The notes under the pieces were generated by a model, which searched no databases, had not been told where the DNA came from, and saw only the letters and a program-made list of their open reading frames with translations. Shown here piece by piece: positions 1 through 15,581 of a stretch of 31,989 bases of DNA. The first letter of the stretch is position 1; each line of letters begins with the position of its first letter. Source of the DNA: a virus. The DNA lies in the UHGV virus genome UHGV-0114034; one strand, 5' to 3'. A program made the translations under genes and the position numbers.

Positions 1-49
1 TCGCCGTAGCGAGTTCAGATAAAAGAAATCCCCGCGAGTGCGAGGATTG

Positions 50-334
50 TTATTCATTGCCGATATTTACCTTTATCGCGAACACCTTTACCGGTTTATC
101 GCCGAAGTGCAGATGTGTGATTGTCTTGATTTCATATCCGTCATACGGAACATCAATTCTGCGGCTGGAGTCGTCGCGCTTCGGATATCCCTTTGTGATA
201 ATCAGGCGGTCATACTTACGGTTAACGAGGCGCTTATTCCAGTAGTCATTACACAGGCGATACTCTTTCGTTTTCTCTCCGCGAATCATGGCATCGAAGT
301 ATTCACCTTTGACGGCAAGTTGCAGGTTAGCCAC
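50..334 (-). CDS. ASCH/PUA-like domain protein (hypothetical)
   Basis: 94-aa ORF; pattern KGEYFDAMIRGEKTKEYR ... HLHFGD resembles ASCH-fold proteins; last gene of leftward early operon. Assignment by recall only. Confidence 0.4.
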   Translation of the reverse strand: MANLQLAVKGEYFDAMIRGEKTKEYRLCNDYWNKRLVNRKYDRLIITKGYPKRDDSSRRIDVPYDGYEIKTITHLHFGDKPVKVFAIKVNIGNE

Positions 335-1247
335 GGTTCACCTCCTGCGGTGCTGCTGGCAGCGGCATCCAGTGGGTTGGCTTGCAGTAGCAATCAAAGC
401 CGTGTCCGTGTGCTGACCCGCCAACGTACGTTGCCATCTTGATTAATGGATCATTACTTTCCGGCGCGTCTGGACGGTACGCCAACACTTGTTCCCCTGC
501 GGAAGGCATCTGCTCACTACAGCTTATCCAACCATCCGGAGTTACCGGAGAGTTGCCAGCCTGAACAGTAGGCATATCCGGACCTTTGCGAATCGCCCTG
601 GCAAGATCGATTGGGTCGTCGTATAACCAGTCACCTGTTTGCGGATGATTGGCCTCTGCCAGTTGCGCCGACCATTCAAGGCCGTCTTTGTGACCTTGCA
701 GATAGTCCAACGGCAACTCATCACGATTACTTACGGGTTCGATTTGTTCGGAATTACCGGACAACTGCATGGTACCTTCATTGGTGAGGGTACCATCTGC
801 ACCCTGAAGCATGGCTGCCCGGCACTCATCAACAGCCTGACACAGCTTGGCGCGGTGATGTCCAGCCATAGTCCCTTTGTTCCAGTCATGCCCCATTGTC
901 ATGCCGTAAGCATGGTGGAGAAGGCGCTTGAAACACTCAGGCACAGCTACCGGCGCTGGAGGGGCGGTGTAGAGCGGCATTACCTCAATATTGAAGATAT
1001 CCCCCTCGCTTGGACACGCCTCTGCGCTACCGTAAACCCAAGGGTGAACGACTCCGTTACGCTTGTTGATTAATCTGTGCGCCCACGCCACAGGCTCCGC
1101 TTCGAGCGATGCCAGCGCGATACGCGCATTATTAATCAGGAGGCTATCAGCAGGAGATAAAACAACATGAGCGTTACCCTCCGCATCAATTTCAGAATTC
1201 GTAATTTTTCTGAACAGCTTTGCCAGTTCTCTGGTAATAGTGCTCAT
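327..1247 (-). CDS. DUF551-domain early protein (Eaa-like)
   Basis: 306-aa ORF; C-terminal motif ...CYCKPTHWMPLPAAP typical of DUF551 C-termini of lambdoid early-region proteins; N-terminal ARIALASLEA module shared with ORF 1519-1803. Confidence 0.5.
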   Translation of the reverse strand: MSTITRELAKLFRKITNSEIDAEGNAHVVLSPADSLLINNARIALASLEAEPVAWAHRLINKRNGVVHPWVYGSAEACPSEGDIFNIEVMPLYTAPPAPVAVPECFKRLLHHAYGMTMGHDWNKGTMAGHHRAKLCQAVDECRAAMLQGADGTLTNEGTMQLSGNSEQIEPVSNRDELPLDYLQGHKDGLEWSAQLAEANHPQTGDWLYDDPIDLARAIRKGPDMPTVQAGNSPVTPDGWISCSEQMPSAGEQVLAYRPDAPESNDPLIKMATYVGGSAHGHGFDCYCKPTHWMPLPAAPQEVNRG

Positions 1248-1522
1248 GGGCGAATCTCCGTCCTGCCACCAAGTAAGCGGATTGCCACTCGTTCCCGGAA
1301 GGTAAGCGGTCGATGGTGTCCGCGGGCATTAACAATTTCAGGCTTTCCATTAGGCGGATAATTGACCCTGACCGATTGACCATCTAGCGCGTGAGAAGCC
1401 TCGAGTAGTGCTGACTTTAAGTGCGCAGGGCACTCTTTCTGCACCCGCTCGCCGTCTGAAATGACACCTGCAATCCCCTGAAGCATGCTGGCTAAATTGC
1501 TGAGATAATTTTTCACATTCAC
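1244..1522 (-). CDS. hypothetical protein
   Basis: 92-aa ORF, 4-nt overlap with neighbours (operon-style coupling). Confidence 0.4.
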   Translation of the reverse strand: MNVKNYLSNLASMLQGIAGVISDGERVQKECPAHLKSALLEASHALDGQSVRVNYPPNGKPEIVNARGHHRPLTFRERVAIRLLGGRTEIRP

Positions 1523-1803
1523 TCTCCTTTACCGGTGCCATAGGCAGATAAGCACTCTTCAAATCCAGCCTGATTATCCGTTTGACCTAAACTGAAGCCA
1601 TGCTGAAGACCATGACGAAATGCGCTATCTTGCAATTTATCTGCGCTATCGAGCTTCGCTTCCAGTTCAGCGATTCGCTTCTCTGCGGCTTCCAGCGATG
1701 CCAGTGCAATTCGTGCCAGTTCCATTTGTTCGCCACGAGTAAGCCCGTTTTCAAGCGGATTTTTAATGAATAATTCGATACGTTCTTTGGTAATAGAATT
1801 CAT
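1519..1803 (-). CDS. hypothetical coiled-coil protein (Ea22-like module)
   Basis: 94-aa ORF containing LEAAEKRIAELEAKL heptad module also present in the frameshifted upstream gene. Confidence 0.45.
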   Translation of the reverse strand: MNSITKERIELFIKNPLENGLTRGEQMELARIALASLEAAEKRIAELEAKLDSADKLQDSAFRHGLQHGFSLGQTDNQAGFEECLSAYGTGKGE

Positions 1804-1804
1804 G

Positions 1805-1996
1805 CTATTTCACCTTAATCTCAACATTTCGCAGCTTTAGCTCTACTGGCAGGTCTGACTTTCCTGTTAATGCTAATGCGAGATTTTCTGGGGTAATGAG
1901 AGCAGTTATTGCTTTCCCCATTGCCAGACGAATAATTATTCGTATTTCGCGATCGTCACATGCTCCTGGTCGAACGATTGATATTTGTCCGTCCAT
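1805..1996 (-). CDS. hypothetical protein
   Basis: 63-aa ORF; start codon 1 nt after the stop of the upstream reading frame. Confidence 0.35.
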   Translation of the reverse strand: MDGQISIVRPGACDDREIRIIIRLAMGKAITALITPENLALALTGKSDLPVELKLRNVEIKVK

Positions 1997-1997
1997 C

Positions 1998-2404
1998 TCA
2001 CTCTCCTTTGATGCGAATGCCTGCGGCGCGGATTGCAGCGATGACTTCAGAAACTTTGTATGCCATTACCGTTTGGTAATCATCGTGAAAATCTGTTCGA
2101 TGAAGCATGCTGCTACGTTCCGGGAGCGATATTTCCCGCGCTTCCAGTTCTGCAATGCGCTTTTTTGCTGCTTCCAGTTCATCCAGTAATTCCAGTACGG
2201 TAGCCGGATTAGCCTTGGCAACAAAATCCCGGACTGGCTTACAATCAATCTCCGCAATGGGTTGATACGATGTGTAGCCATGCTGTCTTGTATAACTACC
2301 GTGACGAATAACAAAAAAATCACCATTTATTTTTTAGCCTGCCACTTATCTTCACCGGCTTTCTCTGCCGCTTCACGCAGTGCCTGATAGTCAATCTTGT
2401 TCAT
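1998..2404 (-). pseudogene. Ea22-like coiled-coil protein, reading frame interrupted (-1 shift) near 2327-2335
   Basis: ATG at 2404 gives MNKIDYQALREAAEKAGEDKWQAKK then TAA at 2327-2329; a start-less open frame continues from 2333 to 1998 (INGDFFVIRHG...LDELEAAKKRIAELEAR...IRIKGE). Junction lies in an A6/T-rich tract. Confidence 0.4.
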
Positions 2405-2405
2405 G

Positions 2406-2705
2406 TCACATCACCCTGAATCCGTTGCATTTACGTAAGAAATCGCAGATATAGCCCTTCATTTTTTCATGCCAATCTCGATCATTCCCATTGCACCAAC
2501 CATCAGGTGGAGTCCAGTTTTCTATCAGAGCAGCCATTTTCTTTGCTTTCGCCGGAGTAGCTGTTGCGGTATCGCAGTAATGACGAGTGTCAACCAACGC
2601 ATCCATACCATCGATATCAAGTACGCAAAACCATGTGTGATTCGGAATTCCTACAGGTGGTATTTGTTGCCCACGTCGACGTTTATCAATAAGATATACA
2701 CTCAC
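2406..2705 (-). CDS. hypothetical protein
   Basis: ORF with probable GTG start at 2705 preceded by AAAGGAGG; start overlaps the stop of the upstream small ORF (GTGA). Confidence 0.4.
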
Positions 2706-2869
2706 TGCTTGCCTCCTTTGCGCCACATCGCATTCAGATATTTGTTTTGATTTACTGACGGAAAAGAATTTCTCTTAAGCAATTCCTCTCTCGATGGCAT
2801 TGGCTTTACGCGTTGGCGAATAATCATTTCTGCCGGAAGAATGCCGGGATTGTATGCAAGTCCTCTCAT
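2702..2869 (-). CDS. small hypothetical protein (55 aa)
   Basis: ATG at 2869 preceded by GAGGAA; [55 protein letters not shown]; stop overlaps downstream start. Below the ORF-track size cutoff. Confidence 0.3.
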
Positions 2870-2885
2870 GATTAATTCCTCTTTG

Positions 2886-3200
2886 TTAATTTATTTGTAT
2901 GCCTGCTCTTTCTTCATCGAGTTTTTTTAGCTTGTATCGCATAGCTCTTACTGAATAAATTGAGCGGCAGGTTGCAATTGCTATTTCTTCTGCGGAGAAC
3001 TTACCGAAAAGTGATACTTCGGCTCTTGTCCATCGTCTTCCACGAAGTCGGCTAACAATGTCAGCGCCAATCCTTGTTGCTTTCGCCATTACTGCTTTTT
3101 CAGTCCTTTCCAGTTTTTCAGCGATAACTTCAACTGGCATTGTCGCCGCTACTTCGCGTAAGAAATCGACTTCCCATTTCTCCCATGGAGTCTTTTTCAT
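2886..3200 (-). CDS. hypothetical protein with two helix-rich repeats (possible DNA-binding)
   Basis: 104-aa ORF; two similar modules ([12 protein letters not shown]... and [14 protein letters not shown]...). Confidence 0.4.
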
Positions 3201-3211
3201 AGGCGATACCG

Positions 3212-3700
3212 TTATTTGATAAGAAGTGAAGGTTTCCCAACCTTGAGTTGAGCGCCTGGGATATTTATTCCTGCTTTTAGTTGGTGCTTGATTGCCAACT
3301 TGTCGGCTTTAATTGTCGTTTCGAACTCAACGTATTCAGGAGGAAGGGCGCTTGAGTCGATGATTTCTACAATTTCTGACGGTTTGCGGATTGTTACCTG
3401 GTGAATACCTGCTCGAATATTTTTCTTGCCAACCATTTCAAGCGATGACGCTATATATGATTTGATGCTGTCAATCTTATTTTGAATTACTGCGGCTCGC
3501 TCATTCAGTGACTTTGCCTCTTCCTTGAGGCGTTCAGCATAACCAGATTCATTTTTAATGACGGAAAGAAGTTGCTCTATTTTATCGGTAAATTCTCCTT
3601 CCATGCCTTCTATTGTGTCAGCAATCATCTCTGGTTCTAAATCTGAATCCATCAATTTTGCGTATTCATTGGCAATTTCATATAGTTTGCTCACTGGCAA
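3212..3700 (-). CDS. Gp157-family protein (coiled-coil, RecT-associated)
   Basis: 162-aa coiled-coil protein adjacent to recT, resembling Siphovirus Gp157-family proteins; by recall. Confidence 0.45.
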   Translation of the reverse strand: MPVSKLYEIANEYAKLMDSDLEPEMIADTIEGMEGEFTDKIEQLLSVIKNESGYAERLKEEAKSLNERAAVIQNKIDSIKSYIASSLEMVGKKNIRAGIHQVTIRKPSEIVEIIDSSALPPEYVEFETTIKADKLAIKHQLKAGINIPGAQLKVGKPSLLIK

Positions 3701-4589
3701 CCTCCAGTTTCGCTTTGCATTCTGCGTAAATGGCTTGTACGTTCTGCTGCAATTTCATTCCAGATGTCAGGCGATATGCTTCTGCAAAATATCGCTTCAA
3801 ATCATCCATGTTTTCAGCCTGAGCCATTTCATCACAAAGAAGTTGTGCTTTATCCGTTATTTCCTGCTGGCGTTTCCGTTCATCTTCGCGGATATCTTCC
3901 TCTGATTTGTGCGGCATAACTGGTTCAGTCCACACACCTTCTTCTTCGTTTAGTACGTGAATAGCACTATCAAGACGTGATGCCTTAGGCCAATACTTGC
4001 TTGCACGCTTTACGACCGTCTTTCGCGCCATCTCATTCCAGTGATTTACCCATGGTCCTTTATCGCTGAATGCCGCCTTGCTTGTTTTCCTTACAGCCTC
4101 AATTTCAGCCAGACTCATCTCTTCCGTTAGATAATCACCTGCTGGCGTCTTAACTGTGCAGTAAACGCCAACGATATCACCACGATCACCGAAGGCGTTG
4201 TATTTATGGGTTGGTGCTTTATCAAGCCCGTTTGACTCATAGGTATCGTTAGCATGAACAAGTTTTGCCTGACCCCATGAGATAACACCAGACTCCATTG
4301 CAATATGGAGCAATCCCATATAACTGATATCAAGGCAAACCATGCCGTCGCGCGGAACTAGATAAGCAAGTTTGCTGGCTGGGTTTAAGGTGATGCCGAT
4401 CGCCGCAACATTGATGATGGCGTTCTGTGCGCTGGTTGGATTTGCCAGTGCCGTTTTAGCCAGGTAATCATTTTTCTGGAAATACTGAATTGCAAACTGG
4501 CTTTCCTTAGCCCATGTCACCGTCTGTTCAGTCAATGCTCCGCAGAATAACTGCTCTTGCTGTTTAACGAATTCAACGATATTGCTCAT
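3678..4589 (-). CDS. recT: RecT-family single-strand annealing recombinase
   Basis: 303-aa ORF; motif KGPWVNHWNEMARKTVVKRASKYWP matches the conserved RecT core (Rac RecT ...GPWVTHWEEMAKKTAIRRLFKYLP). Confidence 0.85.
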   Translation of the reverse strand: MSNIVEFVKQQEQLFCGALTEQTVTWAKESQFAIQYFQKNDYLAKTALANPTSAQNAIINVAAIGITLNPASKLAYLVPRDGMVCLDISYMGLLHIAMESGVISWGQAKLVHANDTYESNGLDKAPTHKYNAFGDRGDIVGVYCTVKTPAGDYLTEEMSLAEIEAVRKTSKAAFSDKGPWVNHWNEMARKTVVKRASKYWPKASRLDSAIHVLNEEEGVWTEPVMPHKSEEDIREDERKRQQEITDKAQLLCDEMAQAENMDDLKRYFAEAYRLTSGMKLQQNVQAIYAECKAKLEVASEQTI

Positions 4590-4897
4590 GCTGCTTCTCC
4601 AAAAATGTGTCTGCGTTTGAATATTGCGAAGGCATATTCAGCCTTAACTCTTTCGGTTATTGCATCCCAGAACCATTCAGCGGCTTTTTCCTGATAGTTA
4701 CAGTCATCATCTTCCAGCCAGTCGATAGCGTCCTTAGTGTGTTCATCTGGTTTATATGAGCGAAGCATTTCGCTTATTGGGTCGCAACGTTTGCAGAGGC
4801 GATCAACTTCACTGTTGATTCGTTCGTAATCTTCATCAGTAAAACTTGCGATTATTTGCGATATTTCACGCTTATCATTCAGAGTCAGAATCATCAT
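4586..4897 (-). CDS. hypothetical protein
   Basis: 103-aa ORF immediately upstream of recT with 4-nt overlap. Confidence 0.45.
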   Translation of the reverse strand: MMILTLNDKREISQIIASFTDEDYERINSEVDRLCKRCDPISEMLRSYKPDEHTKDAIDWLEDDDCNYQEKAAEWFWDAITERVKAEYAFAIFKRRHIFGEAA

Positions 4898-5334
4898 CTT
4901 TCTCCTGTTCTTTGTGCTGATTGAGTATTTTTTTCATCTGACGAATGAATTCTTCGTCTGACCAGTTATCTGTAAAACTCATGGACGGCCTTGTTGTTTC
5001 AAAATATCCCAAAGCTTTTCGAGCAAGCTTTTCATTCTTGGTTGTTTAAAGTCTGCTCCGGTTAAAATATTTTTTCGTGAATGCTGTACCGATAAAATCG
5101 GGTTGAAAGGGCGAACCGATGCCGCCCCAGCAATAGCGAACTGTTGCATAGGATGCTCCTTCTGTTTTATTGCATAACGAAAACGCCTCGAGTGAAGCGT
5201 TATTGGTATGCATATAAAAAGGCCCTCACACTGGAGGGCAAAGAAGATTTCCAATAATCAGAACAAGTCGGCTCCTGTTTAGTTACGAGCGACATTGCTC
5301 CGTGTATTCACTCGTTGGAATGAATACACAGTGT

Positions 5335-5538
5335 TTATTCGCGAGCTTTGAGCATTGCGTCTGCAAACTTATATGCAGCGCTTGCTGCATAATTAACAGC
5401 TCCATCAGAATCATTATCGATAATCGATGGATTGCTAATCATTGCTTGCATAGCCTTTGCCGCGAAGTAATCACGTAATGTCGCATCACTTGCCATTTCT
5501 GGGCGTTTGATATCTGCTTCATAAAACTCGCACATCAT
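5335..5538 (-). CDS. hypothetical protein
   Basis: 67-aa ORF, 4-nt overlap with upstream gene; followed by a 9-bp-stem hairpin (5303-5329). Confidence 0.4.
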   Translation of the reverse strand: MMCEFYEADIKRPEMASDATLRDYFAAKAMQAMISNPSIIDNDSDGAVNYAASAAYKFADAMLKARE

Positions 5539-5828
5539 TCACCTCCCAGAGCCTTGCTGATTGCTGCAAGACCTTTATTAACAGCTTCATACCATTCTGG
5601 ATATGTTGTCGTTGTTCTATTTTTGGATTGCTTAAGTAATAACTGAAGTGCTTCGAGAAGGTCAGGTGCTGCCGCTATCAGTAGCGCATCCTCCCTTTCA
5701 TTTCTTGTTGCTGCTTCAATGTATGTGTCACCAATCGTCACACCATGGAACGTAGTCATCATCTCGTTGACGTTTCTAACCGTGTACTTCCATTTACCAG
5801 GCGTACCCTTAAACTCTTTCATATTCAC
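5535..5828 (-). CDS. Ead/Ea22-like family protein
   Basis: 97-aa ORF with GTPGKW near N-terminus and LLIAAAPDLLEALQLL motif, both recalled as hallmarks of Ead/Ea22-like early proteins. Confidence 0.45.
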   Translation of the reverse strand: MNMKEFKGTPGKWKYTVRNVNEMMTTFHGVTIGDTYIEAATRNEREDALLIAAAPDLLEALQLLLKQSKNRTTTTYPEWYEAVNKGLAAISKALGGE

Positions 5829-5869
5829 CTCTGTTGTTTATGCCCAAAATAAAGGCCGACTATTCGGCC

Positions 5870-6037
5870 TTAAAATCCTGAATATTCGCGAAGAGATTCG
5901 ATAATTTCCTCGCAGTCGATAAGTAGTTCGTCAGGTTCATCTTCTCGATTTTTAAGTGCCTCAATGTTCCCAGCTAACTGGCGAAGCATCATTGCTTGCC
6001 ATTCAGGGTCGAAGCTGTCTGGTATTTCAATTTCCAT
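5870..6037 (-). CDS. small acidic hypothetical protein (55 aa)
   Basis: ATG at 6037; MEIEIPDSFDPEWQAMMLRQLAGNIEALKNREDEPDELLIDCEEIIESLREYSGF; stop overlaps hairpin AGGCCGA-CTAT-TCGGCCT (5853-5870). Confidence 0.3.
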   Translation of the reverse strand: MEIEIPDSFDPEWQAMMLRQLAGNIEALKNREDEPDELLIDCEEIIESLREYSGF

Positions 6038-6099
6038 ATTTCACCTCAAATAAGTGGTTTGCTGCCAAAACAATGAACCATCAGGAAATTCCAGATAGT

Positions 6100-6327
6100 T
6101 CATAATTCACTCTTCAATACTTCCAACTTACTAATCGCCGATAGATATCCGCGCTGATAGGGCATCATCATTCCTTCGAGCTTGCCACTTCTTAACTCCT
6201 CCCTGAGCAATTGTATTGCTTGATCAATAACCTCTGCCTTAGCGTCCTTTATGGCTTGCTTTCGGGGCTTTGCTTTCTGCTTTGGCAGATTTCTCAAGCA
6301 TGATGGAATGTATGTCTGATTCATCAC
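6100..6327 (-). CDS. hypothetical basic protein
   Basis: 75-aa ORF directly downstream of N in the pL operon. Confidence 0.4.
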   Translation of the reverse strand: MMNQTYIPSCLRNLPKQKAKPRKQAIKDAKAEVIDQAIQLLREELRSGKLEGMMMPYQRGYLSAISKLEVLKSEL

Positions 6328-6600
6328 TTACCTCGCTGTCAGTTGTTTTGATTTCCGGTAGCCTGCCGCGTAAAGAGCTACGTTTGGCAGGCAAATACTT
6401 CCACTGCATTCATCTGCCTTCTTGCAGCGAAGGCTTCCGAGTGATGCTGCTTTGTCTGCTCTGACGCAACCAGAGAGCTTTAGCGCAATTTTTCGCGCCA
6501 GTGCTTCATTACTGCGTCGCTCGGCAATAAGTTCTGCTCTGCGAGCTTTGTAGCGGCTTTTTGCCGTACCTTTGGATTCTTTCCAGACAATGGTTACCAT
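6328..6600 (-). CDS. N: N antitermination protein, phage-21-type arginine-rich motif
   Basis: Start at MVTIV (RBS AAAGGAG); N-terminal GTAKSRYKARRAELIAERR matches the phage 21 N ARM peptide as I recall it; first gene downstream of pL/nutL. Confidence 0.7.
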   Translation of the reverse strand: MVTIVWKESKGTAKSRYKARRAELIAERRSNEALARKIALKLSGCVRADKAASLGSLRCKKADECSGSICLPNVALYAAGYRKSKQLTAR

Positions 6601-6710
6601 GATGGTCTCCTTTAAGTGGCTTTGGCGCATGACGCGTCGAGGTGCTTATCTTCTCGATCGCTGTCTTGCAGCTGCAATTCGCGCCATCCCCAAAACCACT
6701 CAAGTTCTGG

Positions 6711-6751
6711 TCTCAACGGTTAGGTTGAGAGTTCGTCGATGTTAAAGAGCC
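6711..6751 (-). promoter_or_regulatory. nutL: boxA-like GCTCTTTAACA and boxB hairpin TCTCAACCTAACCGTTGAGA
   Basis: On minus strand between pL and N: boxA-like element then 7-bp stem with CUAACC loop, similar to nutR boxB at 9436-9454. Confidence 0.6.
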
Positions 6752-6789
6752 TGCCAATCTGTTCCTTGTGGCGTCTCAGCGTCCTGCTG

Positions 6790-6845
6790 ATGGAAATGAT
6801 AGTCACATATTGTGATTTAATGGTCAATCACAAAATGTGTAAAAT
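6790..6845 (-). promoter_or_regulatory. OL operators and pL promoter
   Basis: Palindromes TCACAtatTGTGA (6803-6815) and TCACAaaaTGTGT (6828-6840), same family as in OR; minus-strand TTGACC-17-GACTAT. Confidence 0.55.
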
Positions 6846-7076
6846 AAAGGTGTGACACGTTATGTGTATGATTTTTTTGTGTAAATAGTTTTACCCGCGA
6901 TGGTTTTGCTTACTTAAGTCGGTGGCAACAGCAGGATGGGTGCTGAAAAGTTCGAAAAACGAGCGAATGGGGTGGTGGCGAGATGGCGGGATATGGGAGT
7001 TGTATTAAGAATTATAGTAATTTAATCAATAGTTTGGACCGGCTGGCAGGTGTTGTCCTGATAGTGATCGGCGGGC

Positions 7077-7103
7077 AATAAAAAACCCGGCGCTGAGGCC
7101 GGG
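7077..7103 (-). terminator. rho-independent terminator ending the immunity-region accessory cassette
   Basis: Minus strand: hairpin CCCGGC-CUCAGC-GCCGGG followed by UUUUUUAUU. Confidence 0.6.
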
Positions 7104-7110
7104 TTGATGA

Positions 7111-7233
7111 TTAGCGGTGTGGCCTTGAGCGATAATGCTCACACACATGTTCAAGATTTCCATGCCTTATCCGTTCATAGGCATTCACATGAACTTCTCG
7201 ATCGAATTGGTCATTCAAATTGTATGTAGACAT
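7111..7233 (-). CDS. small hypothetical His/Cys-containing protein (40 aa)
   Basis: MSTYNLNDQFDREVHVNAYERIRHGNLEHVCEHYRSRPHR; stop 8 nt before terminator hairpin; weak RBS. Confidence 0.3.
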   Translation of the reverse strand: MSTYNLNDQFDREVHVNAYERIRHGNLEHVCEHYRSRPHR

Positions 7234-7406
7234 CTGTGTTTTCTCATATTGGCGGCAGCCCTACAACCGCTTGAAAAAATGTACCAGACGCGCTAAGGTT
7301 ACATCGCAAATATTGTGTACCTTAACAAGGGCTCCTTTTGGAGGCTCTGGTTAAACAGCATCAATGTCGGACTGGGGAGTTGGACATTGTGCTGAATGCT
7401 TTTGCA

Positions 7407-7928
7407 TTATTGAGGCCGAACGTAAACCTTCAGAATTGAAGAGATGCGTTCGGCTTCTTCGTTTGTGATATCGTTAGGAATGCCTTTAATCGTTACTGTA
7501 ACCCCTGATTCAGGTCGAAGAACTACTGGAAGATCATAGGTATGAAGTGCATTAGCCTTGCCTTCGACTTTTGTTGGTTCGCCAGTCAAATCTTTTTCCT
7601 CACTGGATTCTTTGTCAATCGGAGTGTATGGGATTTCTTCACCAGACTGGAAAGCTACAAACTTTTTGATTGCACTTTCCATGCGGCTTTTATATGCAGT
7701 AATGCTGCTGTCGCTAGGCTTCGGCTCAGTTGCGTTGATGTATCGCTCGGCAAGCTCATTCACATCAAGCTGAGTAACATCACCCATTTCCTCTTCTTGG
7801 ACTACCGTTAAGAGGCGAGCGGATGAGTTTTTTAAATTTCGAGCGGTGGCCTCCTTCATTATGTTCAGCGACATAAGCTCTTCAAGGAAGTCCTTGAATG
7901 CCTGCACGCTAACGTTTGACTTTGCCAT
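7407..7928 (-). CDS. hypothetical acidic protein, immunity-region moron (rexAB-equivalent position)
   Basis: 173-aa ORF between cI and OL on the cI strand with own promoter-like element (7961-7989) and flanking terminators; no recognisable motif. Confidence 0.6.
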   Translation of the reverse strand: MAKSNVSVQAFKDFLEELMSLNIMKEATARNLKNSSARLLTVVQEEEMGDVTQLDVNELAERYINATEPKPSDSSITAYKSRMESAIKKFVAFQSGEEIPYTPIDKESSEEKDLTGEPTKVEGKANALHTYDLPVVLRPESGVTVTIKGIPNDITNEEAERISSILKVYVRPQ

Positions 7929-7960
7929 TTGCTCTCTCTCTAAGTTATTGACTCAGATCG

Positions 7961-8002
7961 AGTTTATCCAGGAATTGATTTGCATGCAAGACTCAAGTCT
8001 TG
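7961..8002 (-). promoter_or_regulatory. putative sigma70 promoter with overlapping palindromes for the accessory cassette
   Basis: Minus strand TTGCAT-17-TAAACT; palindromes CAAGACT-ca-AGTCTTG (7987-8002) and TCTTGA-n10-TCAAGA adjacent to the -35. Confidence 0.35.
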
Positions 8003-8030
8003 AGAATTTCCGTTCAAGATCCACTCTCAA

Positions 8031-8055
8031 TAAAAAAGGCCGCACCTCTGCGACC
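8031..8055 (-). terminator. rho-independent terminator downstream of cI
   Basis: Minus strand: GGUCGCA-GAGG-UGCGGCC hairpin followed by UUUUUUAUU. Confidence 0.6.
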
Positions 8056-8429
8056 TTTCATCTCCTAAATCTCTTTTCTCTTACCTAAAGAAACAGCAGG
8101 CTGGGTCAGCCCTAACAACTTCAAGTGCATCGGTCAGAGAAAGCTCCGTGCTATACAGGTGTTATTTCATATCTTTTTGCATCCAATAAATTTTCCATCT
8201 GTCCAGAGAGCTGATGCACTTGATTCTTGTTGATGGCAGGACGTTTTTTCACCTGCCTCACCCTGCCATACAGGACGCTGCTCACCGATATCTATTGTCC
8301 GGTCATTGATGTTATAGACAATATCCAGATCATTACGGATATACTCAGATGGCCTTATGCTTTCAATGAATAGATGAACTTCTTTTTGACCGCGTGATAC
8401 TCATGGCCATTAAACTCCATCTATCCTCT

Positions 8430-9077
8430 TCACCCAAACGTCTCTTCAGGCCACTGCGCCTTAACTACCTTGCCTATGATGCGGCAGCTATGGTCGCAAT
8501 CCAGGGTTCTATATGCCGGGTTTAAAGGTACCAGGTAACTAACCCCTGCATCCTTCTCATACTTCTTGAACGTTGCCTCTGAATCACCATTTGCAGAAGC
8601 CACGCAGAAATCCCCAGACTCTACCGGCTCAGCCGGATCAACGAGTATCAGCATGCCTTCCGGAAAACTTGGACGAACCCCCTGAGGCGCCGTCATTGAA
8701 TGCCCCTTCACCTCAAGCCAGAAAGCTTTTTCGCTGGCTTTTGTGGTCGTTGGGACCCATGCCTTTGCATCGCTGGCTGTGTAGCTTCCCACCTCCGAAA
8801 ATGGCCCAGCCTGCACTGAAGAAAATAACGGGTATTCATATTGGCGAAATACGGCGTCTGAATCCTCGCCAAACATTATTTTTGCCGGAGATACGCCGAG
8901 TGCCGCCCCAAGAACCAGCGCGTCATCCGCGCTAACCTTTCTTGTTCCTAACTCGTAGTTCCCCAGGCGTGAAGGCGCAGCCCAGCCGCAAAGCTTGGCC
9001 AATTGAGCCTGGCTAAGTCCTTTAGCTTCTCTAAGGGACTTGATCCTTTCCCCGATAATTTCATGCATCGTTTTCAT
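8430..9077 (-). CDS. cI: CI-type prophage repressor (HTH plus S24 LexA-like peptidase domain)
   Basis: N-terminal HTH ([22 protein letters not shown]) and C-terminal S24 autocleavage domain (KGHSM); divergent from cro across operators. Start may be the second ATG at 9068 (AAGGGA 8 nt upstream). Confidence 0.85.
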
Positions 9078-9083
9078 CCCTTA

Positions 9084-9170
9084 AATGTAACACGCAACGT
9101 GATTGAACTCTGTACACGAATTGAGGTTGACTGTTAATCACAAATTGTGTGTAATGGGTGTGTGATTAAT
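9084..9170. promoter_or_regulatory. OR operators with divergent pR (rightward) and pRM (leftward)
   Basis: TCACAaatTGTGT palindrome (9137-9149) plus TGTGTGATTAA repeat; pR candidate TTGACT(9127-9132)-17-TGTAAT. Confidence 0.55.
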
Positions 9171-9185
9171 GCTAGGGAGACCGAA

Positions 9186-9404
9186 ATGAACAAAATTGCC
9201 CAGCAGCGAAAAAAAATCGGAGTTTCGCAAGCTGTACTAGCTTCGGCAATTGGTTGGGGGCAATCCCGCATCGCCAACTATGAGCTGAATATCCGTACTC
9301 CTGGCCTTAACGATTGCCGAATGATCGTAGAAGGCCTCAGGAAGTTAGGGTGCCAATGTTCTTTGGATGATGTTTTCCCTCCATCCAGTAACAAAGCCGC
9401 CTAA
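9186..9404 (+). CDS. cro: Cro-like repressor (HTH)
   Basis: 72 aa from MNKIAQQ (RBS GGGAGA); HTH GVSQAVLASAIGWGQSRIANYE; first gene of pR operon. Confidence 0.7.
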   Translation: MNKIAQQRKKIGVSQAVLASAIGWGQSRIANYELNIRTPGLNDCRMIVEGLRKLGCQCSLDDVFPPSSNKAA

Positions 9405-9850: not shown

Positions 9851-10696
9851 ATGACAAATACAGCAAAAATACTCAACTTCGGCAGAGGTAACTTTGCCGA
9901 ACAGGAGCTAAGAGTGGCTGATATCGATGATGGTTACACCAGATTCGCTAACGAGCTGCTGGAAGCTATCGCAAGTGCCGATTTAACCGCTCGCCAGTTG
10001 AAAGTTATGCTGGCCTACGTCCGGAAAACATATGGCTTCAATAAGAAAACAGATCGAATAGCCGATGAGCAAATTGCTCAGTTAACAGGACTGTCAAGGC
10101 AGAATGTTAACAAGGCTAAAAAAGAACTGATTTCAATGAATTGCCTGTTTATGGATGGAAATCAAATCGGTGTAAACAGGGAGGTATCTGCGTGGCAATT
10201 CAGCAAGTGTCTCCAAGTTAGCAACTTTGTCTCGAAGTTAGAGACACTCAATGTCTCGAAGTTAGAGACACTCAATGTCTCGAAGTTAGAGACACACAAA
10301 AGACATTCTTTAAAGACAAAAGAAAATATTAATAAACCCCCTATATCCCCCAAAAAAGTTTCTCAGAAGTTCGACCCGCTAGAAACAGAGTTGCCTGATT
10401 GGTTATCAGCAGAAACATGGTTGTCGTGGGTTACCTATCGCAAGGAGATAGGTAAGTCGATCAAGTCTAAGCAAAGTGTCACTCAGGCTATCAACGTTCT
10501 AAGCAGAAGTCTGGAGAAGGGATATACACCTGAAGAAATTATAAACCAGAGCATCGCCAGTGGTTGGCAGGGGATTTTTGAGCCCAAGACTCCAAAGGGG
10601 AAATCTCAACCGAGGCCGCAGCATCGAGCTATGCAGGAAAACTTTGCCACCAAAGATTACGGACAAACTGAAATGCCTTCATGGGCGCAGGAGTGA
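9851..10696 (+). CDS. O: replication initiator O
   Basis: N-terminus MTNTAKILNFGRGNFAEQELRVADIDDGY closely matches lambda O; in-gene iterons encode repeated VSKLETLN peptide. Confidence 0.8.
   Translation: MTNTAKILNFGRGNFAEQELRVADIDDGYTRFANELLEAIASADLTARQLKVMLAYVRKTYGFNKKTDRIADEQIAQLTGLSRQNVNKAKKELISMNCLFMDGNQIGVNREVSAWQFSKCLQVSNFVSKLETLNVSKLETLNVSKLETHKRHSLKTKENINKPPISPKKVSQKFDPLETELPDWLSAETWLSWVTYRKEIGKSIKSKQSVTQAINVLSRSLEKGYTPEEIINQSIASGWQGIFEPKTPKGKSQPRPQHRAMQENFATKDYGQTEMPSWAQE
10207..10300 (+). repeat. ori iterons: about four ~24-bp direct repeats (GTCTCGAAGTTAGAGACACTCAAT) followed by AT-rich segment
   Basis: Two perfect and two degenerate tandem copies inside O, then AT-rich 10300-10360; lambda-type ori architecture. 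Confidence 0.7.
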
Positions 10697-10698
10697 AC

Positions 10699-11544
10699 AT
10701 GACGCTGGATGAAAAGATCTCCCAACTGGAGAAAAAACTTGCAGAATTGAGTTCTCCGCCAATTGCTATCGAGCATACATCTGTAGAAATTGGCACTGGC
10801 ATCTGTGAAAAACATGGTGAGTTTGAGCAGCGTAACCGTTACTCGACTGGGCCAATTAAGTTTGCCTCAAGACCTAGCGAATGCCCGGAATGCATGAGAG
10901 ATAAGCTTATTCGGCTACAGGCAGAGAAGATTAAAATCGACGAGGAATCACGTAAGCGCAATGTCGAGTTTCTGTTGAATAATCTTGATATTCCTGAACG
11001 ATTCAAGGGTTGCACACTACAGAACTACGAGCCAGTCAACGACGATGCAAAGAGAGTGCTCAGGGTGTGTCAGGCATACGCCAGCAAATGGCCTGAGAGG
11101 TTACAGAAAGGCGGTGGGCTGGTTATGTGTGGAAAGCCTGGTACTGGAAAGAATCATCTTGCACTGGCTATCGCCCGGCACGCAATTACGGAACATCAAA
11201 GCTCAGCTATTTTCACAACGGCGCTGAAAATTGCCAGAGAATATAAATCAACATGGTCGAAAAACTCCACCCGCACAGAGGATGAAGTGATCCGACAGTT
11301 CACTAAACCTGACCTGCTAATTATCGATGAGGTTGGTGTGCAGTTTGGAAGCGAGGCGGAAAAGATGATCATGTTCGAAATCATCAACACCCGCTACGAG
11401 TGCATGAAGCCAACAATCCTGATTAGCAACCAGAGCAAAGATGAACTGTCTGCATTCATTGGTGAGCGTGTTATTGACAGGATGAATGATGGCGGCGGGT
11501 GCACTCTTGCGTTTACATGGGATAGTTACAGGAGCAGATCGTGA
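10699..11544 (+). CDS. DnaC/IstB-family helicase loader (P-position replication protein)
   Basis: Walker A GKPGTGKNHLA and Walker B LLIIDEVG; start at MTLDEK; overlaps O stop. Confidence 0.8.
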   Translation: MTLDEKISQLEKKLAELSSPPIAIEHTSVEIGTGICEKHGEFEQRNRYSTGPIKFASRPSECPECMRDKLIRLQAEKIKIDEESRKRNVEFLLNNLDIPERFKGCTLQNYEPVNDDAKRVLRVCQAYASKWPERLQKGGGLVMCGKPGTGKNHLALAIARHAITEHQSSAIFTTALKIAREYKSTWSKNSTRTEDEVIRQFTKPDLLIIDEVGVQFGSEAEKMIMFEIINTRYECMKPTILISNQSKDELSAFIGERVIDRMNDGGGCTLAFTWDSYRSRS

Positions 11545-11831
11545 CTGGAAAAGAAATCATCCTGGAATATCTGAAAACTCATGAACAATTCTCCCCACAT
11601 GAATTAGCACTGATCACCGGAATACCAAATAACAGAATCGCTCAAGCAGCAAGGCATATGGTGAAACAAGGACATTTGAGTGTTGTTGAGCGTAAGTGGA
11701 AGACGGTTATTTATGCAAAGCGCAAAGTGAAGAAGGAGCCAATTAAAAGAAATCCAGATGGTACGGGGTGGGGATGTGCAAATCCAATGACGGCGTTTAT
11801 TAATAGGGCGCTTATGGAGGTAAGGCAATGA
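11541..11831 (+). CDS. ren: Ren-like protein
   Basis: N-terminus MTGKEIILEYLKTHEQF parallels lambda Ren MTGKEAIIHYLGTHNSF; position after P. Confidence 0.5.
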   Translation: MTGKEIILEYLKTHEQFSPHELALITGIPNNRIAQAARHMVKQGHLSVVERKWKTVIYAKRKVKKEPIKRNPDGTGWGCANPMTAFINRALMEVRQ

Positions 11832-11857
11832 CCATCTACATCACTGAGCTAATAACA

Positions 11858-11887
11858 GGGGCTATTTACACAGTAGCCCTTTTTTAT
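11858..11887 (+). terminator. rho-independent terminator after ren
   Basis: GGGCUA-n9-UAGCCC hairpin followed by UUUUUUAUU. Confidence 0.5.
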
Positions 11888-11912
11888 TGGATTAAGAACG
11901 AGGGGGATCCTG

Positions 11913-12125
11913 ATGGACACCGTTAACGGAATGTGTTCAGACGCACCGCGTGCCAAAAAATGTAAATGCGGAAAATCACCGACAATATTCGACATGGAGA
12001 GCGGGTGCCAAATCTACTGCGCTAACCACGCCGCTGTGGCGGCCGCGAATTATCGCAGTGCGGTAACGGAGTGGAATAACCTGAAATCTGTTAGAGAGGG
12101 AAGTCATGAAAAAACTGACCTTTGA
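11913..12125 (+). CDS. hypothetical Cys-rich protein (possible zinc ribbon)
   Basis: 70-aa ORF with RBS GAGGGGG; CKCGK...CQIYC cysteine pairs. Confidence 0.45.
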   Translation: MDTVNGMCSDAPRAKKCKCGKSPTIFDMESGCQIYCANHAAVAAANYRSAVTEWNNLKSVREGSHEKTDL

Positions 12126-12522
12126 AATTCGATCTCCAGCACATCAGCAAAACGCTATTCACGCAGTACAGCAAATCCTTCCAGACCCAACCAAACCAAT
12201 CGTAGTAACCATTCAGGAACGCAACCGCAGCATTCGGCAAAATGCACGCCTTCACGCGATGCTATCTGAAATAAGTAAGAAGGCTACATATCATGGAAAA
12301 GCAAGAAATATTGAGTTTTGGAAGGGGTTATTCGTTTCTGGTTGGCAGATTGCAACCAACCAGCACCCTGAGATTATATCAGGGTTAGAAGGTGAGCTAA
12401 TAAACATCAGAGAGAGTACGGCGACTCTATCTGTAAAAAAAATATCCGAAATAATGGACTACATAGAAGCATATTGTGCCATGAACTCAATTCATCTTAG
12501 CGAATGGAGGAATTATGATTGA
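12106..12522 (+). CDS. ninB: NinB (Orf-family recombination mediator)
   Basis: First ~40 aa (MKKLTFEIRSPAHQQNAIHAVQQILPDPTKPIVVTIQERNRS) match lambda NinB as recalled; C-terminal part divergent. Confidence 0.8.
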   Translation: MKKLTFEIRSPAHQQNAIHAVQQILPDPTKPIVVTIQERNRSIRQNARLHAMLSEISKKATYHGKARNIEFWKGLFVSGWQIATNQHPEIISGLEGELINIRESTATLSVKKISEIMDYIEAYCAMNSIHLSEWRNYD

Positions 12523-13117
12523 GGTTTGGGTAGATATCGAAGGAATTCCATTTTATCAGGTTAGCAATAAAGGGAATTTCAGGTCTATTACGAGGGAAAT
12601 TACAGTAACATCAACCAGACAGAGGCCATATAAGAAAATAATTAATGGCACTAGCGTAAAACCATTCAAGTGCAAGTCGACAGGATATCTTCAAATAAAG
12701 GTATACGGTAAGAAATACAGCGCACACAGGATAGTTGCGAAAGCATTCTGTACAGGGTTCTGTGATGGCTTGGTAGTTAATCACAAAAATGGGCAAAGAG
12801 ATGACAATAGGGCTGAAAACCTTGAATGGGTATCACATTCTGAAAACTCAAAGCACGGATATAAACAAAATGGAAGAATACCTATATCGCTAGGTAAATT
12901 TAGTGGTGATCATCCTGCCAGTAAAGCTGTTATTTCTACTGACATGAAAACTGGGGAGGAGGTTTATTATGAAGCAGCTATGGATGCTGTCAGAGAAGGA
13001 TTTGATAGTTCGTCAATTAGTCGTTGCTGTAATGGCGAAAGCTCATATCACAAAGGAAGATTCTGGCGATTTGCAAATGAAACAATGAAAGCGCGATGGG
13101 GAGACAGGGCGGCATGA
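12515..13117 (+). mobile_element. HNH homing endonuclease gene (NUMOD4 plus HNH_3-like) inserted at ninB 3' end
   Basis: 200-aa ORF: WVDIEGIPFYQVSNKGNFRS and VVNHKNGQRDDNRAENLEWVSHSEN motifs; last residues KARWGDRAA match the lambda NinB C-terminus. Confidence 0.7.
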
Positions 13118-13290
13118 GACGACAGCGACGAAGTTTCACCGACATCATCTGCGAAAACTGCAATTACCTTCCAACGAAACGCTCCAGAAATAAATCCAAG
13201 CCAATCCCAAAAGAATCTGACGTAAAAACCTTCAATTACACGGCTCACCTGTGGGATATCCGGTGGCTAAGACATCGTGCGAGGAAATGA
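13114..13290 (+). CDS. NinE-like (or NinD-like) small nin-region protein
   Basis: 58 aa [27 protein letters not shown]...; overlaps HNH stop (ATGA). NinE versus NinD assignment is by recall and uncertain. Confidence 0.55.
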
Positions 13291-13292
13291 CA

Positions 13293-13646
13293 ATGGATTA
13301 TTCACAGTTAAGTGATTTTGAAATTAACAGAATGGTAGGAGACATAATTTTTAAAGGCCTTTGGGCATGTAAACCGGAAACATCAGGGAATAACACCAAC
13401 AAATGGTATTACGGAAATGCTGATACAACTTTTGAGCCATTAAACCCTTTGCCTGACTACTGCAATGATCCTAGCGCCTCATGGCCGATTATTGAGAAGT
13501 ACAGGATTAGCATCATCAATCTCGATGAAGACGAGTGGGGTGCACGTGGTGTGGCCGACTGTAAATCTAAGCGAGCTATACATGAAAATTCCCTCCGCGC
13601 CGCCATGATTGTCTTTCTCATGATGCAGGACGCCAATAATGCTTAG
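13293..13646 (+). CDS. NinX-like (DUF2591-like) protein
   Basis: 117 aa from MDYSQLSDFEINR; family call by recall only. Confidence 0.4.
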   Translation: MDYSQLSDFEINRMVGDIIFKGLWACKPETSGNNTNKWYYGNADTTFEPLNPLPDYCNDPSASWPIIEKYRISIINLDEDEWGARGVADCKSKRAIHENSLRAAMIVFLMMQDANNA

Positions 13647-13815
13647 CCCATCCCAATCCCTTCAATACCAGAAAGAAAGCGTCGAGCGGGCTTTAACGTG
13701 CGCTAACTGCGGTCAGAAGCTGCATGTGCTGGAAGTTCACGTGTGTGAGCACTGCTGCGCAGAACTGATGAGCGATCCGAATAGCTCAATGTACGAGGAA
13801 GAAGACGATGAGTGA
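13639..13815 (+). CDS. ninF: NinF
   Basis: 58 aa MLSPSQSLQYQKESVERALTCANCGQKLHVLEVHVCEHCCAELMSDPNSSMYEEEDDE, near-identical to lambda NinF as recalled. Confidence 0.7.
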   Translation: MLSPSQSLQYQKESVERALTCANCGQKLHVLEVHVCEHCCAELMSDPNSSMYEEEDDE

Positions 13816-14662: not shown

Positions 14663-14847
14663 ACGCCACAATTCAAACGATACCAGAGCTTCTTATCCAG
14701 ACACGAGGCAATCAGACCGAAGTGGCGAGGATGCTTTCCTGCGCAAGAGGAACAGTGCTCAAGTACAACCGAGACAGCAAAGGCGATCGTCACGTAATAG
14801 TTAACGGCGTCCTGATGGTCAAACAGGGAAAGAGGGGAAGACGATGA
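14659..14847 (+). CDS. ninH: NinH-like protein
   Basis: 62 aa; GNQTEVARMLSCARGTVLKY matches lambda NinH core GNQTEVARRLKCSRGTVRKY. Confidence 0.6.
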   Translation: MNATIQTIPELLIQTRGNQTEVARMLSCARGTVLKYNRDSKGDRHVIVNGVLMVKQGKRGRR

Positions 14848-15362
14848 GCATAAGAGAACTAAACCTCACCAAAGAGCAGCACGAGTGGCTGAATGGCTGG
14901 CTTGAACTGTGGGGCGCATGGGTTTATTCAGGTCGTCTTGAAAAGCGCATGAGCAGCGTAATAGCGAAGTTCATGGAGAGCGTAGAGCCGGGAAGAGTTA
15001 TGACAAGGCCAATGTGCAATGATGATGATGGAATGTTGATTTCTCAGGTCGTCGATTCTGTCATGTGCATTGACAAGAAAGCCTTTGGCATCCTCCTCAG
15101 CTACTACGCTCATGGTTCATCTAAGCGAGCAATTGCATCCTACTATCACGCGACTGCAAAGCCACGCAAGATGTGTGGACGCGGTGGCGAGGGATGGAGA
15201 AAACCTTCACTGGCAACCTGTAGAAACGAAATTGACGATATCCTGAAAGCGTCATTATTTGTTTTGTACCAACCAATGCAAAATGCTTTCAAAATGCGTA
15301 AACGTGTTGAGAAAGTTAAGCATGTTGCTGTCAAAATCCTTGACATGCAATTAGCCATTTAG
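14844..15362 (+). CDS. Q: late antiterminator Q (phage 82/21 QuuD-like type)
   Basis: 172 aa; WGAW and RPMCNDDDGMLI motifs as in 82-type Q proteins; last nin-operon gene upstream of pR' and lysis genes. Confidence 0.65.
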   Translation: MSIRELNLTKEQHEWLNGWLELWGAWVYSGRLEKRMSSVIAKFMESVEPGRVMTRPMCNDDDGMLISQVVDSVMCIDKKAFGILLSYYAHGSSKRAIASYYHATAKPRKMCGRGGEGWRKPSLATCRNEIDDILKASLFVLYQPMQNAFKMRKRVEKVKHVAVKILDMQLAI

Positions 15363-15425: not shown

Positions 15426-15500
15426 GGGTCAGTCGTATAAAGGTCATTACGGAAGGCTGTTAACCTTCTTATCGTGGTTCGAGTCCACGCTGTCCCGCCA
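15426..15500 (+). tRNA. tRNA-Asn (anticodon GTT), one acceptor-stem mismatch
   Basis: Hand-folded 75-nt cloverleaf: perfect anticodon stem GAAGG/CCTTC, loop CTGTTAA, T-arm CGTGG-TTCGAGT-CCACG, discriminator G, encoded CCA. Confidence 0.6.
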
Positions 15501-15505
15501 AACAT

Positions 15506-15581
15506 GCTGGTTTAGCTCCAATGGTAGAGCGGTCGCCTTGTAAGCGAATGGGTAGCGGTTCAAGTCCGTTAACCAGCACCA
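15506..15581 (+). tRNA. tRNA-Thr (anticodon TGT)
   Basis: Hand-folded 76-nt cloverleaf: acceptor GCTGGTT/AACCAGC, D-arm GCTC-CAATGGTA-GAGC, anticodon loop CTTGTAA, discriminator A, encoded CCA. Confidence 0.6.

Follow-up and report, generated by a model that had tools for sequence, protein, structure and literature searches.

The HNH homing endonuclease I-HmuI is encoded within the DNA-polymerase intron of Bacillus phage SPO1. In T4-like phages free-standing homing endonuclease genes of the MobE and Seg kind lie between or against conserved genes and co-convert flanking markers; MobE and the concept of homing were described in PMC2790892 and PMC2988022. Endonucleases joined to other proteins have also been reported. 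Gene 31 of Salmonella phage epsilon34 has an eaE-like N-terminus fused in frame to a putative HNH homing endonuclease (PMC2629481), and fusions of NinB/Orf with HNH are known in the DUF968 family and in phiETA Orf20 (PMC2034487, PMC4118853). Here we describe an HNH endonuclease gene in UHGV virus genome UHGV-0114034 (the window, meaning the whole stretch of 31,989 nucleotides that was analysed). In the early-right (nin) region of this lambdoid prophage, ninB, the HNH open reading frame (ORF) and ninE stand head to tail (Table 1). We have found that an 856-bp cassette, made of a foreign ninB segment and the body of the HNH gene, replaced codons 43-137 of the resident ninB, whose last nine codons now end the HNH ORF. 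Sequence comparisons suggest that the gene probably encodes a free-standing I-HmuI-type HNH homing endonuclease which travels along with two-thirds of the divergent ninB allele next to it, and which would have repeatedly invaded the ninB slot by endonuclease-driven homing.

The replacement was established by comparison with an endonuclease-free, near-isogenic prophage of E. coli KCJ3K291 (L118), which has the matching gene order and a 146-aa lambda-type ninB directly followed by ninE. Window positions 10637-12231 were 99.2% identical to this prophage and positions 13087-13328 were 97.9% identical. Between these blocks, over 12232-13086, no BLAST homology was found, with 855 bp in the window facing 284 bp of lambda-type ninB (codons 43-137) in L118. 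The GC content is 36-42% in the cassette versus 44-52% in its flanks. As an earlier note on this DNA had advised, comparison of the ninB to ninE interval with lambda and an endonuclease-free prophage defined the breakpoints, which are sharp and fall at codons 42/43 and 137/138. The same note had placed an insertion at the 3' end of ninB; the comparison with L118 shows instead an allelic replacement of codons 43-137. The left breakpoint falls just after CGCAACCGCAGC, the coding sequence of the conserved RNRS motif and the sole DNA patch conserved between lambda-type and cassette ninB. An identical left junction was seen in three N-terminal backgrounds, one lambda-like, one P27-like and one quite unrelated (MKCVKYHL...). 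At the right breakpoint HNH codon 191 is joined to ninB codon 138; therefore the HNH ORF lacks an own stop codon and uses that of the old ninB, with which the start of the following gene overlaps. We also considered a simple insertion after ...SEW in which the insert supplied the ending RNYD*. This was ruled out by the replacement seen against L118, and endings of the form W/G-R-x-Y-D/E accompany the HNH gene in its relatives because they overlap its Shine-Dalgarno sequence and start codon.

Residues 192-200 of the HNH ORF (KARWGDRAA) are identical to lambda NinB 138-146 (9/9 residues; lambda record NC_001416), a match that the earlier note had recognised, and the underlying DNA, AAAGCGCGATGGGGAGACAGGGCGGCATGA at 13088-13117, equals lambda at 28 of 30 positions and in frame. 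Since the tail coincides exactly with the point at which homology to L118 resumes (13087), it is not a chance match, and its description as a footprint of the arrival of the endonuclease gene holds. The proposed duplication of the ninB end, on the other hand, was not found: the upstream ninB stops before reaching KARWGDRAA, and the window retains the resident ninB end only once, as the tail. The tail carries GGGGAG/GGAG (13098-13103) and the ATGA stop/start overlap. From their sequence these are predicted to be the translation initiation region of the gene 3' of ninB, which is ninC in lambda and ninE here. The ATGA at the end of the HNH ORF contains the ninE ATG, the L118 annotation begins NinE at the equivalent ATG, and this ATGA would couple translation of ninE to that of the HNH ORF. 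Since the HNH ORF runs in frame into the stop codon of the old ninB, the next gene would keep its termination-reinitiation coupling. In other loci the identical tail precedes ninE, dam, ninC or ninD. The missing ninC to which the earlier note had drawn attention is indeed absent from the window; it is also absent from L118, so that its absence predates the event and is unrelated to the endonuclease.

The protein encoded by the ninB gene of the window is apparently an intact, chimeric NinB of 138 aa. Its residues 1-42 are identical to lambda NinB 1-42 and the remainder is only ~25% identical. The divergent C-terminus pointed out earlier is thus real, although it is a part of the imported block and not a feature of a resident gene. 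Pfam NinB covers 2-129 of the 131 model positions, and the RSIRQNARLH motif retains Q45, N46 and H50. Positions Q45, N46 and W/H50 are important conserved channel residues of NinB/Orf (PMC4118853). The chimera lacks the equivalent of lambda Orf residues ~134-146, W137 included.

Table 1. Positions of the ninB, HNH endonuclease and ninE features and of the segments that make up the cassette and its borders in the window
Feature	Position	Strand	Remarks
ninB	12106-12522	+	138 aa; Pfam NinB 138.8 bits
Resident lambda-type ninB 5' part, codons 1-42	12106-12231	+	Inside the 99.2% block with L118; would be the left homology arm; ends in CGCAACCGCAGC (RNRS)
Imported cassette, 856 bp: foreign ninB segment and HNH gene body	12232-13087	+	No BLAST homology to L118; low GC
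Divergent-clade ninB codons 43-138 and stop	12232-12522	+	Pfam NinB coverage; ~25% identity to lambda
GGAGG, Shine-Dalgarno sequence for HNH ORF	12506-12510	+	Within the last ninB codons (W-R); 4 nt 5' of the ATG at 12515; read from sequence
HNH endonuclease ORF	12515-13117	+	200 aa; 8-nt out-of-frame overlap with ninB
Retained 3' end of resident ninB, codons 138-146 and stop	13088-13117	+	28/30 nt versus lambda; now C-terminal tail of HNH ORF
ninE	13114-13290	+	First gene of right flank; Pfam NinE 141.8 bits; alignment begins at residue 7 of the longer listed ORF

The assignment of the ORF to the HNH/NUMOD4 endonucleases of the homing type, first made from the sequence alone, was confirmed by Pfam matches to NUMOD4 (51.2 bits, cut-off 23.4) and HNH_3 (45 bits, cut-off 24.8) and by the match to I-HmuI. 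In a sequence search I-HmuI (PDB 1u3e) was the only significant PDB match of the ORF, with E = 4.7e-14 and an alignment that stops at residue 186. An AlphaFold2 model had a mean predicted local distance difference test (pLDDT) score of 85, falling to a mean of 52 over residues 191-200. When this model was compared with the PDB by Foldseek, 1u3e was the sole significant match (E = 1.2e-12, 190 columns, probability 1.00). H90, N102 and N111, which supply the general-base His and the Asn residues of the HNH (beta-beta-alpha-metal) motif, are unchanged across 22 relatives and pair in the 1u3e alignment with H75, N87 and N96 of I-HmuI, whose numbering and roles we take to be those of the I-HmuI structure paper. 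The earlier note had let its reading depend on two points, that KARWGDRAA should match the real lambda NinB and that the catalytic residues of HNH should align, and both were borne out. Sequence and model together point to an I-HmuI-like homing-type endonuclease with a NUMOD4 module, the HNH core (H90/N102/N111), a NUMOD-like C-terminal module and, as residues 192-200, the ninB remnant. Consensus scans for a promoter or terminator of the HNH gene gave none above shuffled expectation inside the cassette.

The ninB segment and the HNH gene were found together at >=95% identity in 63 phage records, including many Stx2a-converting phages, P27, phage 86 and APC_JM3.2, and at 80-90% identity in two more, one of which is Salmonella phage SEN22. 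No copy of the divergent ninB allele (>=80% identity) that lacked the HNH gene was seen in the phage collection, where 65 of 65 records also match HNH, or in the complete genomes of E. coli, whose 80 places all contain the full-length cassette. The next-closest NinB in the phage collection is <60% identical. Among 5426 complete E. coli genomes the cassette was present in 77 (80 places), O157:H7 genomes among them, and the lambda-type segment in 1307 (1491 places). Both alleles occur in different prophages of E. coli O121:H19 16-9255 (NZ_CP022407.1), the cassette in H161 (5381856-5382711) and the lambda-type segment in H179 (1545543-1545827). This strain offers a natural setting for a homing test on induction.

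Thirty loci were compared for the uniformity of the cassette, 27 with a full-length copy, two with a 1-nt deletion and one with an insertion sequence (IS). In the 27 other full-length (856 bp) loci the cassette was 98.5-99.8% identical to that of the window. Across the 30 loci it was found in at least five left contexts (variants of the ninB 5' part) and four right contexts, namely ninE, a dam methyltransferase gene, ninC and ninD. In pairwise comparisons of 25 loci the foreign ninB segment was 99.6% and HNH 99.1% identical, against 86.5% in the 126 nt on the left, 93.7% in the tail and 60% in the 200 nt to the right of it. Decayed copies were also seen. L055 and L060 have 1-nt deletions, proteins P0124 and P0126 are frameshifted, and in L061 (IMGVR_UViG_2713896798_000010, ~1785-3020) the HNH gene is interrupted at CTAG, near the equivalent of window position 12650, by an IS5-type element of ~1.2 kb with GGAAGGTGCGAA... 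terminal inverted repeats and a ~340-aa transposase ORF. Decay of this kind, by IS5 insertion and frameshift, is expected of a selfish gene.

Relatives of the HNH protein, down to ~34% identity, are encoded directly 3' of a NinB gene in many loci of IMG/VR and of the genomes. The genome collection, with one genome per species, gave only three close loci, and IMG/VR was the more productive source. Past a conserved W-R-F the C-termini of these relatives are often NinB ends of varied length, in at least nine junction classes besides that of the window. The remnants span 9-35 codons and their starts range over lambda NinB codons ~116 to 138. The highest score against shuffles belongs to GTEHGVKWADEAKAA (z = 12.7), and further remnants after the HNH domain read IAAYGDKHGVRWTGEATP, AHAFGTQRGVEWSPTSLGRAA, SDASRLEIEWATRWGKS and AERGVVWSDRARQEIVDDWESA. 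L115 and L116 have a complete upstream NinB and its end is truly duplicated, in diverged form, 3' of the HNH gene. The tail in L114 comes from another NinB clade than the upstream gene, as in the window, and in L085 a 20-residue NinB tail is found on an HNH gene without an upstream NinB. At 3579-3686 of L096 the remnant is a separate 35-aa ORF, MIHAFGAEQGARWTDESLAVFEKYQQFNKTARRLP (MIHAFGAEQGARWTDES...), a displaced NinB C-terminus that starts in the ATGA ending the HNH ORF. Six junction classes among the fetched loci were in frame and one, L096, was out of frame, an excess to which our own rough binomial estimate gives P ~ 0.007 against a one-in-three expectation. High frame +1 scores in the test for out-of-frame remnants proved to be an artefact of downstream genes matching read-through 'NinB' proteins in the database, only L096 being genuine.

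A strict co-inheritance of NinB and HNH was also considered and rejected, as it holds only in the E. coli/Salmonella/Yersinia group, and elsewhere the HNH gene stands with other NinB clades, DUF1367, YbcN-type Orf or RecT. In some of the loci a second, weaker HNH-family profile match was present in the nin/replication region (L035 4839-5381, L039 122-634, L040 1910-2599, L065 505-1008, L081 3793-4434 and L113 332-952), so that some phages have two or more endonuclease genes of broadly this type. The L114 phage has a DnaB helicase gene (5041-5567) with a weak Pfam match to the intein family Hom_end_hint, which suggests a second selfish element.

The cassette uniformity of ~99% in diverse flanks, taken with the NinB-end remnants of the relatives, supports a homing endonuclease that repeatedly entered the ninB slot. 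During lytic growth or induction beside another lambdoid phage or prophage the enzyme would nick or cut lambda-type ninB, and the genome with the endonuclease would be the template from which repair copies the cassette. Co-conversion would always include the foreign ninB segment, which is probably a cleavage-resistant allele. Because there is no DNA homology between the two ninB types over codons 43-137, crossovers could take place only left of codon 43 or right of codon 137, giving constant boundaries and an obligatory co-conversion. Homology arms might be provided by the 126 bp at the 5' end of ninB and by the tail of 27-30 bp, together with the sequences outside them. The in-frame tail may have been kept since its Shine-Dalgarno sequence and ATGA preserve termination-reinitiation coupling for the downstream nin gene.

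Several observations weigh against homing. The cassette is a minority allele, making up ~5% of lambda-type and cassette loci together, and the nin region is mosaic anyway. The same downstream genes are also found after ninB without an endonuclease, so that ordinary shuffling accounts for some of the diversity in context. In the protein itself, the C-terminal I-HmuI_NUMOD-like match (19.3 bits) is below the Pfam cut-off of 27, and D74 of I-HmuI is replaced by N89. The HNH relatives adjoin recombination genes generally, NinB, YbcN-type Orf, RecT and DUF1367 alike. DUF1367, which may be a functional analogue of NinB, occupies the ninB slot 5' of the HNH gene in L062, L064, L065, L099 and L106; the gene in this position is a YbcN-type Orf in L067-L076 and RecT in L097. 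The divergence of NinB correlates with that of HNH (Pearson r = 0.83, Spearman 0.51), and this pattern and the recombination-gene neighbourhood both also fit a functional partnership. Finally, the literature on NinB, homing endonucleases, and lambdoid and Stx phages yielded no published study of cleavage, nicking or homing by this HNH protein.

Ordinary lambdoid mosaicism is one rival explanation. The block would have been swapped by homologous or Red-type recombination at short conserved boundaries, the RNRS patch and a linker formed by the ninB end and ATGA, with HNH as passive or no longer active cargo and the tail as nothing other than the conserved linker. In agreement with this, both junctions lie at conserved patches, the tail is a translation initiation region common to all genes after ninB, its 3' half co-varies with the downstream gene, and the cassette is rare (77/5426 genomes). 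Shuffling at conserved boundaries does not, however, account for a right junction without homology on the cassette side, which therefore was formed once by illegitimate joining and then spread unchanged, or for a cassette far more uniform than its flanks. Furthermore, the different ninB-end remnants in independent HNH relatives argue for a recurrent process associated with the endonuclease, and the catalytic residues are invariant. We therefore regard mosaicism as an unlikely explanation.

It might also be proposed that the two genes form a functional module, in which an HNH nickase and its cognate NinB/Orf mediator jointly initiate recombination or the restart of replication, to the phage's own advantage. 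The known NinB-HNH fusions make such a module conceivable, and one of them, phiNM1 Gp16, was described as a nuclease that depends on RecA and acts as a nickase in vitro (PMC12817073). The recombination genes that adjoin the HNH relatives and the correlated divergence of the two proteins would be expected as well. Nonetheless, the near-isogenic L118 prophage does without the HNH gene, and HNH is of the sequence-specific NUMOD4/I-HmuI type and not the zinc-finger HNH of the fusions. HNH also pairs with unrelated NinB clades (in L006 HNH is 65% and NinB 34% identical to the window), and the displaced ninB ends, the IS insertion and the frameshifted copies fit a selfish element. A cooperating module is thus decidedly improbable. 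That the HNH ORF lies in an intron or intein restoring a full-length NinB is almost certainly wrong: joining ...SEW to KARWGDRAA would mimic the lambda NinB end, and I-HmuI is itself intron-encoded, yet no Rfam match was found in 11800-13500 even at E <= 1, the ORF occupies the whole 580-nt interval and leaves no space in which a ribozyme core could fit, an intein is excluded by the stop codon and the change of frame between ninB and the HNH ORF, and L118 shows replacement of codons 43-137 and not insertion. The HNH gene is free-standing, neither intron- nor intein-encoded.

Homing into the ninB slot thus remains our preferred reading, and a wider one might be built on it. The HNH lineage would then have specialised, as a homing element, on the slot that recombination mediators occupy in lambdoid phages of Enterobacterales and Pseudomonas. 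The ninB end would be no scar and would serve it as a working, universal right homology arm of ~30 bp and as a translational coupler, by which the cassette could convert any lambda-type ninB regardless of the gene that comes next, and its own NinB allele would supply the mediator that loads recombinase at the break. In multi-lysogens like O157:H7 such an element would set off recombination of Stx prophages residing together, at a site just 5' of Q-stx. We put this forward as speculation and hold it to be doubtful as a whole.

Other features of the window were noted outside the cassette. A terminator-like hairpin with a 10-bp stem followed by a T run lies at 11857-11881 (+), the only one in 11500-13700. 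It is located 5' of ninB, between a 96-aa ORF (11541-11831) and a small ORF (11913-12125), and could be a tR2-like terminator. ARAGORN identified tRNA-Asn(gtt) and tRNA-Thr(tgt) at 15426-15581 (+), just 3' of a Q-like antiterminator ORF (14844-15362), a position at which tRNA genes are often found in lambdoid and Stx phages, and tRNA-Ala(cgc) at 8797-8879 (-). A replication-initiator-like ORF at 9851-10696 (+) has the tandem peptide repeat (N)VSKLETL x3 and therefore ~21-nt direct DNA repeats within the gene, which by analogy with lambda O are possibly origin iterons.

Database records already name the gene HNH or HNH homing endonuclease, and Curtis et al. 2014 give the abbreviation 'HNH' in the legend of their ninR gene maps, with no such gene discussed in the text. 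Neither the breakpoints nor the borrowed ninB end nor the recurrent remnants were described in the literature that we found on ninB and nin-region HNH endonucleases. The locus provides a clean natural example of a free-standing homing endonuclease settling in a temperate phage operon, where the element puts its own allele in the place of most of a host gene, borrows the stop codon of the displaced gene and the ribosome-binding site of the next one and therefore avoids polar effects downstream. If the enzyme is active, a recombination hot spot would lie a few kilobases 5' of Q and stx, which bears on the reshuffling of Stx prophages. The ninB-end remnants of varied length in the relatives provide a map for locating the cleavage site.

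Of the systems already described, I-HmuI is closest in the protein itself. Like the HNH ORF it has a NUMOD4-type module, an H-N-N core and a C-terminal NUMOD-like helix-turn-helix, the two being 29% identical over the structural alignment. I-HmuI is intron-encoded whereas the gene described here is free-standing, and the latter differs by N89 in the place of D74 and by its 9-residue ninB-derived tail. The MobE and Seg genes of T4-like phages share with this locus the position between or against conserved genes, the presence/absence polymorphism between close relatives and the movement with flanking divergent sequence. Unlike them, the element of the window is found in temperate lambdoid prophages, its endonuclease ORF continues in frame into what is left of the displaced gene, and its co-converted block is fixed, as homology is absent over ninB codons 43-137. 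Gene 31 of epsilon34 also belongs to a lambdoid/P22-like phage and also joins a putative HNH homing endonuclease in frame to a portion of a resident gene. In that early-left operon gene the endonuclease is fused at its N-terminus, whereas here the fusion is at the C-terminus, to ninB and in the nin region. The NinB/Orf-HNH fusions of Gram-positive phages (DUF968, phiETA Orf20 and phiNM1 Gp16) link NinB physically to HNH, as does the window. In those fusions one polypeptide contains both parts, the HNH is of the zinc-finger (IscB-like) kind, NUMOD modules are absent, and the proteins are interpreted as working nucleases, whereas the window has two genes in different frames, an I-HmuI-like HNH and nine NinB residues only, at the opposite end.

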